Shown here piece after piece: positions 26,672 to 34,195 of a DNA stretch of 64,000 nucleotides (position 1 is the first letter of the stretch; each line of letters opens with the position of its first letter). Source of the DNA: an uncultured Planctomycetota bacterium (lineage in GTDB: Bacteria; Planctomycetota; Planctomycetia; Isosphaerales; Isosphaeraceae); assembly GCA_963845755.1 (NCBI GenBank), contig CAWJTV010000003.1:128001-192000 (forward strand). The letters are read 5' to 3'. A program made the translations under genes and the position numbers. A model generated the notes under the pieces. It was not told the DNA's origin. It saw only the letters and a list, made by a program, of their open reading frames with translations, and made no database searches.

Positions 26672-26732
26672 CCCTAACGCCCCAGATCAGCGGCCCGCCG
26701 ACAGGCGGGTCCGCTGCAACGCCGGGTTAGGC
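26672..26732 (-). repeat. attC 5
   Basis: GCCTAAC..TTGCAGCGGAC..GCCGCTGATC..GTTAGGG. Confidence 0.9.
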
Positions 26733-27831: not shown

Positions 27832-27917
27832 ACGTCCTACGCCGGTCGGGTAAGGAGGTGAGGTTGCCCTCACCCCCTCCCCTCAGAACCGTACGTGCGC
27901 CTTGCGACGCATACGGC

Positions 27918-28924
27918 TCAAGCCTTCTCGAACGCCCCTCGCGGGACACAGCCCAGTCCGCCAGCCTTCCTCTTGCCGTGGATCTGCCGATGGCAGTGGG
28001 CGTGCAACAACTCCAAGTTGTCGTACGTCTCACCGCCGCCTCGATTGCGCCAGATCCGATGATGAATGTGCCAGGGTTCGTCTTCGGCCTGAAGAGGCTG
28101 CCCGCACATCACACATCGACCCCCTTGTCCCTTCCAGAGATACTCGATCCGGCCTCGACCTGCCAGGGTGTGCGTCAGCTTCCAGGCCGACCTCTCCTCC
28201 AGGTAGAGTTCCCACTCCGGATCGTAGGGGTTGGCCGCACTCCGGATCTTCCTCCACCGCAGGACCTTGACCCCGGCCGCTTTCATCAGCCGGATCCGTC
28301 GCGCCGAGCCCGTGCTGTCACGGATTGTGCCCGTGAAGACCCAGTCTCGGTGGCCCTCGCGCTGGAAGTATTTCCTCTTGATCCACTTCCAGTTCTTCTC
28401 GGGATGGCGTCGGCGACACCATCTCATCAGCTTCCGGAAGATCCGATCGTCCACCGCATGGAAGATGCGCTTACTGACCGCATAACGGTGGTACATGGTC
28501 CAGCCCTTGATCTGTTGATTCAGGCGCCGGATTAAGTCGCCCGCCGTCTTGCCGCCCGAGTCGTCGATCGTCGCCTGGATCTTGGCCAGGAACGTCTTGA
28601 TGCTCCGCTTCGATGGCTTGATCAAGACCTTGCCATTAGGGAAGCGTCGCACCGCCTGTCCCAGGAAATCGAAGCCGTCCTCAAGATGGGTGATCCTGGT
28701 CTTCTCGTGGGAGAGTTCGAGACCCCGCTTTCGTAAGAAGTGTTCCACGAGGGGCTGGACTTCACCTCGCAGGAGGACCCTTGATGTGCCGGTAATGATG
28801 AAGTCATCCGCATATCGGACCAGATGGACCTTGCCTCCCGCACGCCGTCGGCGTGTGTTGCTGAAGCGCCGCTCCAGCAACTCTTGCAACCCATCCAGGG
28901 CCCGGTTCGCCAGCGCGGGGGAGA
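27918..28924 (-). CDS. ltrA: Group II intron RT/maturase, C-terminal part (YADD, domain X, HNH endonuclease)
   Basis: SPALAN..LDGL, VRYADDFIIT, GLELSHEKT, GFDFLG, LNQQIKGW..YHR, ANPYDP and C..C..HIHH..NLELLHAHCHRQIH. Confidence 0.93.
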
Positions 28925-30946
28925 TCACGCCCCCAACAATGTTGCAAAACTGTCCCTGATCCCTGACTCTGTCATTTCCAGATCGCGGCTCCGACCGAAG
29001 TATGGGCAAGGATGGCAGCCCGGGCTCGATCCCCGTCCAAGGCAGGCTGACAGCCGCGGTCTTGGAGAGGATGAGTCAACATGATTACATCTCAACGGAG
29101 GTCAGCCCTGAGCCCTCCCGTCACCCGCCATTTCGAGTTCACCCGGTTTCAGGATGAGGTGATCGCGCTGGCATACCAGGCCTTGATCCCGGTCGTTTCT
29201 CGCCACCTGGAACGGTCGCGATCGCGATCTCACGACAACGAGCAGGCCACCACAACGATGCAGGGACTCCGATCAAAGGCCAGAGGAGCTTGACCAGCCA
29301 TGCTCAATCACGATCTCTGTGTGGGGACCTATGGCCGGGTCTCCGGGGACCAACAGTCCAAGGAGGACACGATCGCCAGCCAGCTTGAGGCGATCAGGCA
29401 GCGCGTCGCGAGCGACGGCTTGGTATGCTCCCCCGAGCTGTGCTTTGTGGACGATGGCTACACCGGGGATACCCTGGTCCGCCCGGGCCTCGAACGACTT
29501 CGGGACCAGGCCGCTGCTGGGACCATCGATCGCCTCTACATTCTCGATCCCGATCGACTTTCGCGCAAATATGCCTACCAGGTTTTGATACTCGAGGAAC
29601 TGGCCCGGTGCGGCGTTGAGGTCGTCTTCCTGCGCAATCCCCTGGGTCACGGACCCGAAGAGAACCTGCTTGTGCAGGTCCAGGGCATGATCGCTGAATA
29701 CGAGCGTGCCAAGATCATGGAGCGGTGTCGCCGAGGCAAGCAGTACGCCGCCCGCCACGGCTCGGTCAACGTGCTCAGCGGCGCGCCGTATGGCTACCGC
29801 TACATCGGCAAGCATGAGGGCGGCGGCGCGGCGCGTTATCAGGTCGTGGCCGACGAGGCGCGGATCGTGCGGAAGATCTTCGGGTGGGTCGGCCAGGAAC
29901 GATGCTCGATCGGTGAGGTTTGCCGACGTCTGCAACGCGACGGCGTCCCCACGCGGACGGGCAAATCGGCCTGGGACCGCTCGGTGATCTGGTCGTATCT
30001 CAGGAACCCTGCCTACAAGGGGACGGCCGGTTTCGGCAAGACACCACGCGGGCGCCCTCAAGCCGAAGCGGCTGCGCGCGCAACGCGGCCGTCCTGAGCA
30101 GCCCCGGCGTCCTGTCTCTCGGGTCGATACATCCACGCAAGAACAAATCTTCATCGATGTCCCCGGTTTGGTGAGCGAGGAACTCTTCGGGATGGTTCAA
30201 GCTCAAATCGAGGAGAACCGGCAACGCCGGCGCGAACGGCTCCGTGGCGACCGCTATCTCCTCCAGGGGTTAGTTGTCTGCAAACGGTGCGGCTACGGCT
30301 GCTACGGCAAGCCGGTGAGCCGGGCCTCGGCCAAGGGGAAGGTCCCCTACGCCTACTACCGCTGCACCGGCTCCGACGCCTATCGTTTCGGTGGCCAGCG
30401 ACTGTGTTGGAACAAGCAGGTCCGCACGGATGTCTTGGACGCCGCCGTCTGGGAAGATGTGCGTCATCTCTTGTCCGAGCCCGAACGGGTTCGAGTGGAG
30501 TACGAACGGCGGCTGCACGGGCCGGAGACAGGCCCAGACCGCGAGGTGAAGCATCTCAACAAATTGATTGCGAATCTAAAAAAGATGATCGCTCGATTGA
30601 TCGATGCCTACGGCGAGGGATTACTTAACAAGTCGGAGTTCGAGCCAAGGATCTTGGCAGCGCACGAGCGCCTGGCCAAACTGGAGGATGAGTGTCGGCA
30701 GCAGATTGACGAGGCCAACCAGGAAGCCGAACTGCGGCTGGTGATCGGCCAGTTGGAGGAGTTCGCGAGACGCGTTTCCCACGAGTTGCAAGAGCCGGAC
30801 TGGGCCACGCGACGGGCGATCGTTCGGGCTTTGGTGAAGAAGGTCGAGATCGACGAGCAGGAGGTCCGCATCGTGTATCGGATCAGTCCGTCCCCTTTTG
30901 AGGGAGGCCCCCAACAGGGTTCTTTGCAACATTGTTGGGGGCGTGA
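28925..30946 (+). mobile_element. Large-serine-recombinase element (2022 bp) interrupting the intron RT
   Basis: Perfect 24-bp inverted ends TCACGCCCCCAACAATGTTGCAAA (28925-28948 / 30923-30946), with GA at both junctions (28923-24 / 30945-46). Removing the element restores the RT. Confidence 0.92.
29081..29293 (+). CDS. Small hypothetical protein (70 aa) upstream of the recombinase
   Basis: GAGGA upstream of the ATG; ends 6 bp before the recombinase ATG and contains its RBS (GAGGAG). Confidence 0.6.
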   Translation: MITSQRRSALSPPVTRHFEFTRFQDEVIALAYQALIPVVSRHLERSRSRSHDNEQATTTMQGLRSKARGA

Positions 30947-31289
30947 CGATCCCCCCTTGAGGTGTGCCTTCCGTGGTGGCGAACAGGACGTGCTTCTCCA
31001 GGAACCCGGCCTTCAGCCACTTCCGGAGCACCTCCTTGTCCATGGGGATATGGTCGATCAACCAACGATGGCTGATCCGATCAAAGCAGGCTTTGATATC
31101 CCCCTCCAAGATCCAGCTCGGACCGGGCGGACCCCTGAGGATCTTGTGACACTCATCCAGGGCATCGGCACAGCAGCGTTCCAGTCGAAAGCCGTAGGAA
31201 TGGCCGTCGGCGAGGGACTCTGCGATGGGATCGAGGCCCAGCAGGTAGAGGGCCTGCATGGCTCGATCGGCCATGGTAGGAATCCCTAA
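29300..31289 (+). CDS. Large serine recombinase; frameshift near 30045; reads past the element end at 30946
   Basis: Catalytic YGRVS..Q, DDGYTG..RPGL, DRLSR; recombinase domain (APYGY); Zn ribbon LLQGLVVCKRCG..YYRC; coiled coil; RRAIVRALVKKVEI. Confidence 0.9.
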
Positions 31290-31660
31290 ACCACGTCGCT
31301 GGCCGTTGCTCTTGGGAATGTAAACCCTGCGGAGCGGTTGCGGCCGATAGCCGTGCCGACGCAGGGTGCTGAAGGCCGCCGACTTGACCTCCGGCGTGTT
31401 CCAGAGGATTCCGTCCACGCCGGGGGTCCGCGCACCCGAATTACTGACGACTCGCAAGATGGCCAGAGCCCGGCCACTGTACGAGTGGGTGAGCAGGTAG
31501 ACCAGGGCTTTGGCTTTGTTCCACCTGCCCTCCCGGACTGCCTTTACGATACGCGCTGGAGCCGACGGACCGTGCGCCAGACTTTCTTCCAGGAAATGGA
31601 ATTCCAGTCGGGCGCATGGCCGGGGACCGCACCAACAGGCGTTGCCGCCTGTGCCTTATC
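30947..31660 (-). CDS. ltrA: Group II intron RT/maturase, N-terminal part (start approximate; 1-bp frameshift near 31557)
   Basis: WNSISWKKV..VRRLQ/ARIVKA, TPGVDG, RRVYIPKSNG..RGLGIPTMADRAMQ, SYGFR, WILEGDIKACFD, WLKAG and GTPQGGIV. Confidence 0.92.
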
Positions 31661-32277
31661 TGCTTTGCCCCCTGAGTCAGTTGGCCGAGGTTCTCTCGTA
31701 ACGGAAGACCCGGGGGAAGTCGGCTCCCTTTCGGGCGGGGTGATGTCGCCTGTCGGCTCAACCCCTATCCGACCGGTTAGTGGCCGGCGTTCGCTTCCTC
31801 CCTCGTCCTGTACCCGCCGCCCCATGGGCTCCTCTTGCGAGTCGCCTACCCTCGCGGGGAGGACGACGGGCTTACCACGTTCCGACGATGTGCCAAGGTG
31901 GGGAGGGTCGCCGCTCTTCGCCGGTGGTACGGCATCTGCGCCGGGGAGTTAGGAGCCCCCGGACCTGACCACGTGCCCTTTTGGCCCAAGCGTGACAGCA
32001 TCTTCCGCTTGTTCTCAGTAACGACGTTTATCGCGGCTTCACTTTACGTTAACCCGTCCACCCGATCCTGGTCCCCGACCGCGTTGATGCTGGCAGTCGC
32101 GGCGTCGGCTGGCGCTCCGGCCGCCCTCCCGAGGGAGGAGGATACGTTGTGCCGGGGGCTTGGCACCCCTCCGTTGCCGGAGGCGCACTCCCCGGTGGGA
32201 TACTGCTGGCAGAACAGCAGGTGCTGTCGCCCTCTCCGAGGTCGCAGCACAGTCACATCGGCGACTTCGTGTCGCAC

Positions 32278-32335
32278 CCTAACGCCAAGATCAGCGGCCC
32301 GCCGCAGGCGGGTCCGCTGCATCGCATGGTTAGCC
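32278..32335 (-). repeat. attC 2 (intron target)
   Basis: GGCTAAC..GATGCAGCGGAC..GCCGCTGATC TTGGC GTTAGG|intron. Confidence 0.92.
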
Positions 32336-32735: not shown

Positions 32736-32793
32736 GGCTAACGCCCAAGATCAGCGGCCCGCGGAGCGGGTCCGCTGCATCGCTTTGTTAGAC
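32736..32793 (-). repeat. attC 1
   Basis: GTCTAAC..GATGCAGCGGAC..GCCGCTGATC..GTTAGCC. Confidence 0.92.
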
Positions 32794-33202: not shown

Positions 33203-34195
33203 ATGGATTATCCCGACCAAACGCGATCAGGAAAGACGCCCAGGTTGCTCGATCGAGTCCGCGAAGCCATCCGGAGATTGCATTACAGCATTCGCACGGA
33301 GACGGCCTACGTCCAGTGGATCAAGCGGTTCATCCTCTTTCATGGCAAGCGGCATCCTCTCGAGATGGGCGAACGCGAGGTCGAAGCCTTCCTCAGCCAT
33401 TTGGCGGTCGAGGGAAACGTCGCGGCCTCGACGCAGAATCAGGCGATGAGTGCCTTGCTGTTCCTCTACAAGATCGTGCTGGATCGCCCTCTGCGCGGTC
33501 GCATCGACGCCTTGAGGGCCAAGCGGCCGGAACGGCTCCCCGTCGTCCTCACACGTACCGAGGTCCGCGCGATCCTGGCCCAGCTCGATGGCGACAAGCA
33601 TCTCATGGCGAGCTTGTTGTACGGCTCCGGGCTGAGGCTGATGGAGTGCCTCCGCCTCAGGATCAAGGACGTCGATTTCGGGCAAAATCACATCCTCGTC
33701 CGTGACGGCAAGGGGCAGAAAGACCGGGTGACCCTCCTTCCCCGCTCGCTGATCGAACCGTTGAAGAGCCGGATTGCGATCGTCCGCCGTCTGCATGAAC
33801 GCGACCTTAGTGAGGGATTCGGCCGGGTCTATCTCCCGCACGCTCTGGCGGAGAAATACCCAAACGCCGATCGTGAGCCCGGCTGGCAATACCTGTTCCC
33901 CGCACCACAGCGATCGCTCGATCCTCGAACCGACATCCCGCGGCGACACCATCTGGCCGAGACCGCCTTGCAGAAGGCCATCCGTGGCGCCGTCCGCCGT
34001 GCCGGGATCGTCAAGCCGGCCAGTTGCCACACGTTTCGCCATAGCTTCGCCACACACTTGCTCGAGGCCGGTCAGGACATTCGCACGGTCCAGGTGCTTC
34101 TCGGTCACAAAGATGTCGCCACGACGATGATCTACACCCATGTCCTGAACCAAGGTCCCCTCGGCGTCCGCAGCCCCATCGACTTCCTCAACTAG
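33203..34195 (+). CDS. intI: Integron integrase
   Basis: [37 protein letters not shown], integron-specific insert ([24 protein letters not shown]), [12 protein letters not shown] and LLGH..TTMIYTH. Confidence 0.97.

Follow-up and report, generated by a model that had tools for sequence, protein, structure and literature searches.

The clostridial transposons Tn4451/Tn4453 and Tn5397 are moved by the large serine recombinases (LSRs) TnpX and TndX, respectively. These transposons excise as circles, generate no duplication when they insert, and use targets that resemble their own joined ends. In the related serine integrases of phages, recombination directionality factors (RDFs) bind the C-terminal region of the enzyme, and a coiled-coil motif of LSRs, located in or after the zinc ribbon domain, controls directionality. 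The subject of this report is a 2022-bp element encoding an LSR and a 70-amino acid (aa) protein, found at positions 28925-30946 of a 64,000-nucleotide stretch of DNA (hereafter the window; contig CAWJTV010000003.1 of assembly GCA_963845755.1, positions 128,001 to 192,000) from an uncultured Planctomycetota bacterium of the Isosphaeraceae. The element lies within the reverse transcriptase (RT) gene of a group II intron. It is very probably an insertion sequence (IS)-like LSR element that parasitises a conserved motif of group II intron RT genes and passes from a circular form to its next target through site-specific reintegration at a central AT dinucleotide. The features of the locus are listed below by window position and strand.

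27845..27921, minus strand: group II intron RNA, domains 5-6 (RF00029, 61.8 bits)
27918..28924, minus strand: C-terminal half of the intron RT gene, with (V)SPALAN..., YADD, maturase domain and HNH (RVT_1 126-204, GIIM, HNH)
28924..28925, plus strand: left-junction dinucleotide AT if the crossover is read as central (from junction comparison)
28925..28948, plus strand: left terminal inverted repeat, 24 nt, fully complementary to the right repeat
28925..30946, plus strand: mobile element, 2022 bp, defined by its ends and by six copies in the genome at 94.9-100% identity
28926..30945, plus strand: element proper if the crossover is central, with one crossover dinucleotide on each side
28926..29084, plus strand: left-end segment, which across joined ends would read as a tail of about 53 residues in the recombinase frame; its TGA overlaps the ATG of the small open reading frame (ATGA)
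29081..29293, plus strand: open reading frame (ORF) for the 70-aa protein, conserved, with no Pfam or NCBIfam family
29300..30097, plus strand: N-terminal piece of the LSR, with Resolvase and Recombinase domains and Ser15 in YGRVSGDQQ; frame break near 30044
29988..30946, plus strand: C-terminal piece of the LSR in the +1 frame, with zinc ribbon and helical region; it has no stop inside the element and exits through the right repeat
30923..30946, plus strand: right terminal inverted repeat, which also codes for the ...QHCWGR end of the recombinase frame
30946..30947, plus strand: right-junction dinucleotide AC (GT in the RT sense, from the Val codon GTC), the target's own
30947..31825, minus strand: N-terminal half of the intron RT gene, ending ...GTPQGGI (RVT_1 1-123), with an extra frame break near 31540
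32071..32221, minus strand: group II intron RNA, region of domains 1-4 (RF02012, 100.8 bits)

The element has the general features of an insertion sequence, being 2022 bp long, multi-copy, limited to two genes and bounded by 24-bp terminal inverted repeats, which are 100% complementary. The LSR frame starts six bases after the end of the 70-aa ORF in the window. The N-terminal piece of the LSR matches PF00239 with 94.8 bits, and an intact homologue of about 550 aa (P0003) matches the same family with 94.9 bits at residues 10-154, followed by PF07508 (61.3 bits, residues 185-306) and PF13408 (41.1 bits, residues 320-388). A Zn_ribbon_recom domain was found on the LSR piece at 30168-30920 of the window, and the region corresponding to residues 400-510 is presumed to be helical. 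Ser15, within the motif Y-x-R-V-S, is invariant in the 12 LSR homologues that were aligned. A promoter and terminator scan of 28800-31100 returned no sites.

The gene that the element interrupts has RVT_1, GIIM and HNH domains together with ribozyme domains on the same strand, as expected of a group II intron, and the insertion point within it is PQGG|IVSP. The empty site, which encodes PQGGIVSPA, occurs letter for letter in five uninterrupted copies of the same intron RT, two on contig C41 and three on contig C47 of the same assembly. These five copies are 100% identical to the RT halves in the window and read PQGGIVSPALAN, which is the sequence obtained upon deleting 28925-30946; the RT frame is fully open in three of them. 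There is no target duplication, as the empty sites match the flanks exactly with just two shared letters. In the genome as a whole, 17 ends of RT N-terminal halves were counted; the element occupies 3 of them, a contig end truncates 1 and the other 13 continue without interruption. An earlier note made from the window alone had described a 2022-bp element with a 70-aa ORF and an LSR, antisense within a group II intron RT gene split in its PQGG motif, and had given it a perfect 24-bp inverted repeat, GA at both junctions with no longer target duplication, and a deletion product that restores PQGGIVSPA. All of this agrees with the ends, domain hits, minus-strand ribozyme domains and uninterrupted copies described here. 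The same note had proposed a search of reads for the empty junction. That junction is present not only in the five copies but also in a 151-nt contig of a public sequencing run (X1), which skips exactly 2022 nt with a 2-nt ambiguity; the contig is no proof of excision, since the genome has these five empty intron copies. The N-terminus of the window RT has a further single-base break near 31540 on the minus strand (...WRTVRRLQR | RIVKAV...), and three sister copies lack this break and have an open frame of 701 codons.

The assembly that holds the window comprises 14.3 Mb in 49 contigs and contains six full copies of the element. These are 94.9-100% identical to one another, as expected of a multi-copy element that was recently active. 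An RT PQG motif abuts all six copies, which are distributed over four or more different RT genes and occur in either orientation. The window copy (contig C3) and the copy on C47 interrupt the same intron family in opposite orientations. The copies on C16 and C24 are in a second intron family, with RT halves that are 87% and 77% identical; the two contig ends share 99.8% identity over 5.1 kb, and the copies are therefore counted as one event. The copy on C22 interrupts a third RT, at GTPQGSP|ISPLLAN, while the copy on C6 has RT N-terminal halves of two different kinds, one per side, neither of which belongs to the RT family of C3 and C47.

Relatives of the LSR are numerous, with 7961 of 8000 scored candidates reaching E <= 0.001. 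Among the best 120 listed, identity is 80-100% and length is 438-784 aa, with most proteins having 549-620 aa and all three LSR domains. Many of the listed relatives are on contigs of about 2 kb, and public run X3 yielded a 2026-nt contig consisting of the element alone, both of which are typical of how repeats behave in assembly. A scan of one genome per species gave 198 relatives, from which 80 loci were kept, and 70 of these loci have clear inverted ends 1.9-2.6 kb apart. The flanks were compared with a two-motif test, which asks for P[QRE]G in one flank and a [ST]PxLAN-like motif in the other in the arrangement of a split RT. This arrangement was found for 45 of the 70 elements; of 3300 control positions chosen at random in those loci, 1 showed it. 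Independently of the motifs, tblastn matched an RT half in a flank at 58 of the 80 loci, and in 18 of these 58 the match covers the maturase region. The 45 RT-flanked loci belong to 27 assemblies from at least seven phyla by hand count. Two finished genomes, those of Singulisphaera acidiphila DSM 18658 (two copies) and Singulisphaera sp. PoT, are among these assemblies, alongside metagenome-assembled genomes (MAGs) and drafts from the Planctomycetota, Chloroflexota, Acidobacteriota, Nitrospirota, Thermodesulfobacteriota, Actinomycetota (three Parafrankia) and Pseudomonadota. Elements of distant clades, about 2.2 kb long and with recombinases 42-47% identical, occupy the same RT codon, and other genomes hold up to about ten copies. 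The recurrence of RT halves broken at PQG among homologues had been put forward as a check in the earlier note, and its reading of the element as a hyperparasite is strongly supported by the six copies and 45 relatives that lie in such motifs in both orientations.

That note had also named homologues at unrelated sites as a sign that would speak against this reading, and here most elements are RT-flanked and about eight are at plainly non-RT sites. In a quick tree of 50 intact recombinases, with target labels assigned by hand, the non-RT copies stand beside near-identical RT-targeted ones (locus L031 with L030 and L041, and L032 with L039). We read the non-RT copies as off-target events rather than as lineages that have acquired a new target, and the sites of L031 and L032 resemble the RT motif by eye. 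In a plasmid collection, 53 records hold relatives of the LSR, at 40-52% identity and all below 60%. One of these, on plasmid pWW53 of Pseudomonas putida (78913-80510), is a broken relative with 52% identity that adjoins benA; no inverted repeat of >=10 nt and no RT flanks were detected there.

The genome also harbours two other repeated elements. A second family of LSR element has six copies, on C42, C11 (two), C18, C20 and C13 (within loci L007-L018). Its recombinase is about 47-50% identical to that of the window element over the full length and its ends are similar (CCCCAACAG...); it was left out of the tree since its frame has a stop. This family sits in a REP-like repeat rather than in RT genes, apparently with a CC crossover, and seven uninterrupted copies of its reconstituted REP-like site occur in the genome. 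The other is a multi-copy element of about 1.5 kb (10 blastn hits in the genome), which is nested in the C16 and C24 RT gene (C24:2361-3880 and C16:1249-2769) roughly 20 codons upstream of the recombinase element.

The junctions provide information on where strand exchange is likely to occur. The window copy has AT at its left junction and AC at its right junction, and the empty site has AC; the C47 copy is the mirror case. Across the family, 32 unique junction pairs were aligned in the frame xx+CACGCC ... GGCGTG+xx. Fifteen of these pairs are AT/AT and two are CT/CT, and of the other 15, 14 have AT at one junction and GT, AC, CT, TT, GC or AG at the other. The variable dinucleotide tracks the target codon, which is ATC or ATT for Ile, CTC for Leu, GTC for Val, ACC for Thr and GCC for Ala, and the arm bases beside it are constant across the pairs. 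These patterns make the central AT of the palindrome a likelier crossover than GA, and of the two options considered in the earlier note it is GA that the family-wide comparison disfavours. The mixed junctions would arise if an attP with AT and an attB with another dinucleotide exchanged strands with a 2-nt stagger and one round of replication followed, after which each daughter would have AT at one junction and the dinucleotide of the target at the other. Orientation could be compared in 37 unique junction pairs, with 12 '+', 14 '-' and 6 unassigned pairs and 5 in which the RT motifs on the two sides are alike. Because AT is self-complementary and attP fully symmetric, the site would have no polarity and the element could enter in either orientation, and the even split fits such a loss of polarity.

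Recognition of the target was considered with 19 unique RT-type targets from the close clade. On the N-terminal side, the codons for G-G-V/I read GGNGGNGTG as compared with GGGGGCGTG in the element, and on the C-terminal side the target has CNCNCC where the element has CACGCC, so the inner arms are alike. Both outer arms of the target carry a TTG(G/C)C-like word that lies, by eye, 6-7 bases nearer the centre than the TTGCAA word of the element. Serine integrases distinguish attB from attP by a motif shift of this sort, which is read by the zinc ribbon domain.

Based on these data, excision would release the element as a circle of 2022 bp, and the joining of its ends would create an attP that is a perfect palindrome. 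Reintegration would proceed by conservative recombination into DNA coding for PQG(G/S/A)x(I/V/L)SP(L/A)LAN of group II intron RTs, with a pair of LSR dimers acting at the central AT and tolerating a mismatch there. A target with a dinucleotide other than AT, such as the GT in this locus, would still be used and would leave AT at one junction and its own dinucleotide at the other. As integration creates no duplication, excision would restore the RT frame, which we read as a by-product of the chemistry and not as a regulated switch. The motif belongs to the most conserved words of DNA that is itself repeated, horizontally mobile and dispensable, and it would thus offer many safe landing sites in many hosts.

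A further feature of the element is that its recombinase frame has no stop within the element. The frame runs through the right repeat (...QHCWGR) into the flank, which explains why LSR proteins in databases end in unrelated tails. In silico joining of the ends extends the frame into the left end, and 37 of the 41 close-clade elements then have precisely 53 further codons before a TGA, which shares bases with the start codon of the 70-aa gene (ATGA). The tail frame is free of stops in all 29 unique left ends, while the other two frames contain a stop in 22 and 29 of them. Relative to the window, 170 of 471 changes in the tail frame are synonymous versus 79 of 496 and 86 of 486 in the other frames, and the tail has a conserved motif (...APNNVAKxSLIPDSVISRxRLRPKYGQGW...). 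When a general arm rule is applied to 41 elements of all clades, 39 read on for 18-70 codons, the exceptions being L046 and L048, and the distant clades share a tail motif, NFEFE.... These observations suggest that the full recombinase gene would exist only in the excised circle.

For the wider family, there is direct evidence of a circular or tandem form, although not for the clade of the window. Metagenome contig L100 contains a natural head-to-tail junction (701-724) of a 2.2-kb relative that is about 70% identical to the Parafrankia elements, with the order recombinase C-terminus, right end, two bases, left end, small ORF and recombinase N-terminus. The recombinase frame crosses this junction and stops 4 nt before the next ORF, which is a 119-codon open frame preceding the recombinase start. 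L100 was one of two matches in a scan of metagenomes for joined ends; the other, L101, is an intergenic hairpin with no relation to the element. Six proteins of about 601 aa, among them P0071 and P0086, were considered as possible products of the circle and set aside, as all of them end in flank-encoded tails and not in the conserved tail.

It is possible, though the proposal is a tentative one, that a split recombinase gene, completed only in the circle, lets the element sense its own state, and that this is combined with tolerance of mismatches and perhaps with retrohoming. In the chromosomal form, the recombinase frame would end in flank-encoded residues and yield a tail-less enzyme that drives or permits excision. 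In the excised form, nearly the whole circle would be one closed coding loop, and the full-length enzyme made from it would, together with the 70-aa protein, drive integration. Such a split gene would confer directionality without a classical switch of the phage type, while an enzyme tolerant of central mismatches could accept Ile, Val, Leu, Thr or Ala codons in the RT motif. The element is located in domain IV of the intron, so the composite might also retrohome to new sites if RT were supplied in trans from intact copies.

Of the 80 loci, 46 encode the 70-aa protein, and in each of them 10 nt separate the end of its gene from the start of the recombinase. The conserved core of the protein reads R-x-F-x-F-T-R-L-Q-x-Q-x-I-A-x-A-Y-x-x-L-x-P-V. 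Searches of Pfam and NCBIfam assigned it to no family, and its best matches in the ESM Atlas (0.86-0.88) are unnamed and below the 0.9 level. Structure prediction of the protein in complex with the recombinase gave a score of 0.73, compared with 0.01 for the best of three controls; the mark applied to this score is attained in 116 of 157 solved complexes, as against 2 of 215 mismatched pairs, counts that are rough as own alignments were used for them. The prediction runs share at least 76% of contacts, and the pLDDT of the partner is at least 57. The predicted contacts are between residues 11-38 of the small protein and residues 378-404 and 488-534 of the recombinase, a zone that corresponds to the helical region just before the start of the junction-encoded tail. 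The 70-aa protein is thus predicted to bind the C-terminal region of the recombinase, and it may have a role like that of a directionality factor.

Several observations weigh against the interpretation of the element as a mobile parasite of RT motifs with a central AT crossover. The two-motif test fails for 25 of the 70 loci. About eight of these have plainly non-RT flanks (L031, L032, L043, L046, L057, L067, L075 and L082), four (L025, L047, L049 and L056) form a subfamily whose ends differ slightly and whose insertions recur at another site, and seven have two like RT halves in inverted arrangement or long palindromic flanks (L044, L045, L051, L058, L062, L085 and L074, the last placed here by motif only); the remaining ones are cut by contig ends or have one motif only. 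A third RT family in the genome, with the motif PQGSVASP and five copies, is never occupied. With regard to the crossover, the phiC31 and Bxb1 serine integrases are blocked by a mismatched central dinucleotide, so the mismatch tolerance proposed here would be unusual among serine integrases. GA, or TC in the RT sense, is the only dinucleotide common to both junctions and the empty site in the window copy, and a crossover at GA fits this copy without any mismatch. No circle junction of the window clade, which the earlier note had proposed to look for, was found in the genome itself, the fetched loci, the contigs of four public runs, which are informative only for the parts they cover, or the metagenome scan; the only pattern matches to joined ends in the loci are flanks that resemble an element end (L025, L044, L047 and L056). 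Nor does any read or contig among the Logan contigs of the four runs bridge either junction of the window locus. These contigs break at repeat edges, and the pairing of the two flanks in the window consequently depends on the assembly.

The state of the recombinase gene also counts among these points, since the recombinase frame is broken in all six copies of the genome, with breaks that are not the same in each copy and that fall in G+C runs. The extra base at 30044 is present in the window copy and absent from the other five, contigs of runs X1 and X4 have one base fewer at 30046, and removal of one base joins the two LSR frames of the window, which overlap at 29988-30097. In the same assembly, rpoB (C34:79347-83258) is split into two overlapping frames of 692 and 678 codons. 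Because the five other copies lack the extra base, the X1 and X4 contigs are one base shorter and rpoB is likewise split, the frameshift near 30045 that had been reported in the earlier note is indeed present in the window sequence but is probably an assembly error and not a true lesion. For the six copies together, the attribution to assembly error draws on rpoB and the short-read contigs. Intact LSR homologues of 549-590 aa are common.

Some of these loci have additional features. The third RT family, GTPQGSVASPILANIYL, is found on C7, C34 (two copies), C36 and C42, and its N-side arm, GGGAGCGTG, closely resembles the arm of the element. The ends of the L025/L047/L049/L056 subfamily read ATGACGCC..., and elements of this subfamily were found four times at one site, where one arm copies the element's own end (GGGGGCGTC) and the other flank is not RT-like. 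Like-half flanks, which consist of two N-terminal halves or two C-terminal halves in inverted arrangement, are seen at L005 (C6:31936-33954), L044, L058, L062 and L085, as well as at L045 and L051, and the flanking palindromes are 253 nt long in L058 and 124 nt long in L085. These arrangements may result from inversion by homologous recombination between oppositely inserted copies, or they may be assembly artefacts.

Alternative explanations for the locus have to account for its exact empty site and for its recurrence in RT genes. The earlier note had raised the possibility of a DNA-level switch. On this view, the element would have been domesticated by the intron or the host and its reversible excision would toggle RT expression and intron mobility, as in the skin element of sigK and the fdxN element. 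The RT frame would be exactly restored upon excision, and XisF of the fdxN element is the nearest NCBIfam model, albeit with 103 bits against a cut-off of 375. A switch is nonetheless very improbable, for the element is multi-copy and present in both orientations, interrupts many unrelated introns in at least seven phyla, has sporadic non-RT copies and shows no link to any developmental gene, and intact copies of the same intron coexist with it and would make a switch unnecessary. It is equally improbable that a single chance insertion into an ancestral intron RT was followed by copying of the composite through retrohoming or duplication. Copying of this kind is compatible with C16 and C24, which are the same composite copied or assembled twice, and with several loci of one MAG that have identical flanks, seven loci sharing one junction pair, and an insert in domain IV could in principle be carried with RT provided in trans. 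Passive spread does not readily explain 19 unique RT-type targets in the close clade that have divergent nucleotides and I, V, L, T or A as junction residues, the opposite orientations of C3 and C47 in one intron family, the empty copies of identical introns, the presence of recombinases only 42-47% identical at the same codon, or the resemblance by eye of at least two off-target sites (L031 and L032) to the RT motif.

Two further alternatives concern the crossover and the assembly. The same element with the same way of life could exchange strands at GA, one base off centre, by analogy with TnpX and TndX. In C3 and C47, GA/TC is the sole dinucleotide common to the junctions, the empty site and the joined ends, no mismatch is needed, and the X1 contig has its 2-nt ambiguity at the skip. 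An offset crossover is still unlikely given that the two positions outside CACGCC/GGCGTG vary (AT, CT, GT, AC, GC, TT and AG, with CT/CT twice) while the next inward base is constant, and that ATT targets, as opposed to ATC, fit the central model without mismatch and do not fit a TC model; a cut off the centre of symmetry would also be odd for a symmetric dimer. Finally, the insertion or the pairing of its flanks could be a misjoin through repeats in an error-prone long-read metagenome assembly. The assembly does have indel errors, three of the six copies lie within 3 kb of contig ends, no independent contig crosses the junctions, and odd palindromic arrangements occur at C6, L044, L045, L051, L058, L062 and L085. 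An artefact has very little probability all the same, because the same junction structure is found in 27 other assemblies, including finished isolate genomes, and because the interior, ends and empty site were recovered in separately assembled contigs of public runs; even if two intron copies had been misjoined, insertion into the RT motif would remain. Parasitism of the RT motif by a circularising LSR element with a central crossover therefore continues to be the preferred interpretation.

The surroundings of the intron are of separate interest. An integron integrase is encoded at 33203-34192 of the window on the plus strand, 1 kb from the intron, with 485 bits for TIGR02249 against a cut-off of 265. 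A repeat ending in GTTAG has three copies (26705-26730, 32308-32333 and 32766-32791), with none expected by chance, and these repeats flank small ORFs and the 5' end of the intron. The intron and its element thus seem to be inside an integron cassette array, which would amount to three levels of nesting.

If the proposed lifestyle is correct, the element adds a class of insertion sequence that is driven by an LSR, has terminal inverted repeats and is widespread in soil and sediment bacteria. It would represent a clear case of one selfish element specialised on the catalytic motif of another, with a bearing on the control of group II introns and on the frequent annotation of their RT genes as broken. 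For annotation, genes for a 'recombinase family protein' located between two RT pseudogene halves could be recognised as this LSR element. The fully symmetric attP, the tolerance of crossover mismatches, the recombinase gene completed in the circle and the possible 70-aa partner would, if confirmed, also be of interest for the development of tools. Among the titles and abstract openings listed in full-text searches of the literature, no description was found of a serine-recombinase element that targets intron RT genes. The terms 'reverse transcriptase' and 'intron' are absent from the main text of the LSR preprint by Durrant et al., whose supplements might list such targets. An excerpt of PMC4853749 mentions serine recombinases only in the context of xisF and was set aside as not relevant.

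Among described elements, insertion into repeated harmless sequence and completion of a gene or signal by joining or integration have parallels in systems that use other enzymes. IS1397 targets REP sequences, IS911 forms promoters at its junctions, and mycobacteriophages have integration-dependent immunity. Their enzymes are DDE or DEDD transposases or tyrosine integrases, whereas the present element uses an LSR, targets a coding motif of a retroelement and completes the recombinase frame itself at the junction. Closer in enzymology are the skin element (SpoIVCA, sigK) and the fdxN element (XisF), in which an LSR element splits a gene that is restored by precise excision. Those elements are single-copy, developmentally regulated and serve their host, in contrast to the present element, which is multi-copy, occurs across phyla and has a selfish element as its host gene. 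Scores for the LSR are far below the NCBIfam cut-offs for XisF, which is the best match, as well as for CcrB (83 versus 900 bits) and CcrC (59.9 versus 900 bits). IS607 is likewise an insertion sequence that is moved by a serine recombinase without target duplication. According to the abstracts of PMC6188088 and PMC4058570, the DNA-binding domain of IS607 TnpA is N-terminal to the catalytic domain, and the element has no terminal inverted repeats and little target specificity. The present element is outside the IS607 family, as its catalytic domain is N-terminal (residues 10-154), its 24-bp terminal repeats are perfect and its target is highly specific.

The mechanism is closest to those of the clostridial LSR transposons and the phage serine integrases. 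With the phage integrases (phiC31, Bxb1, A118 and SPbeta), the LSR shares the order of catalytic, recombinase and zinc ribbon domains and helical region, a 2-bp crossover, attP and attB inner arms that are alike, and a small partner that is predicted at the C-terminal region. Matches in the PDB to the A118, phiC31 and SPbeta integrases are weak (E 1e-5 to 7e-4) and confined to the catalytic domain or the A118 DNA-binding region. The present element differs from phage systems in being non-phage, multi-copy and without cargo, in its perfect 48-bp palindromic attP with a palindromic crossover and lost polarity, in its apparent tolerance of mismatches, and in having a recombinase gene that spans attP. 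The clostridial transposons are 6-21 kb long and carry cargo, compared with 2.0 kb and no cargo here, and unlike them the present element is bounded by perfect terminal inverted repeats of 24 bp and aims at a single conserved coding target. TnpX and TndX use GA, while the junctions of the present family point to central AT, with GA fitting the window copy. An excerpt of the preprint by Durrant et al. gives DUF4368 as present in 63% of the 'multi-targeting' (TnpX-type) LSR clade, and this feature was absent from P0003 at E <= 0.1. LSR transposons as such were already known, and what appears to be new is an IS-sized LSR transposon that has symmetric ends, a retroelement motif as its target and a recombinase gene split by its own ends.

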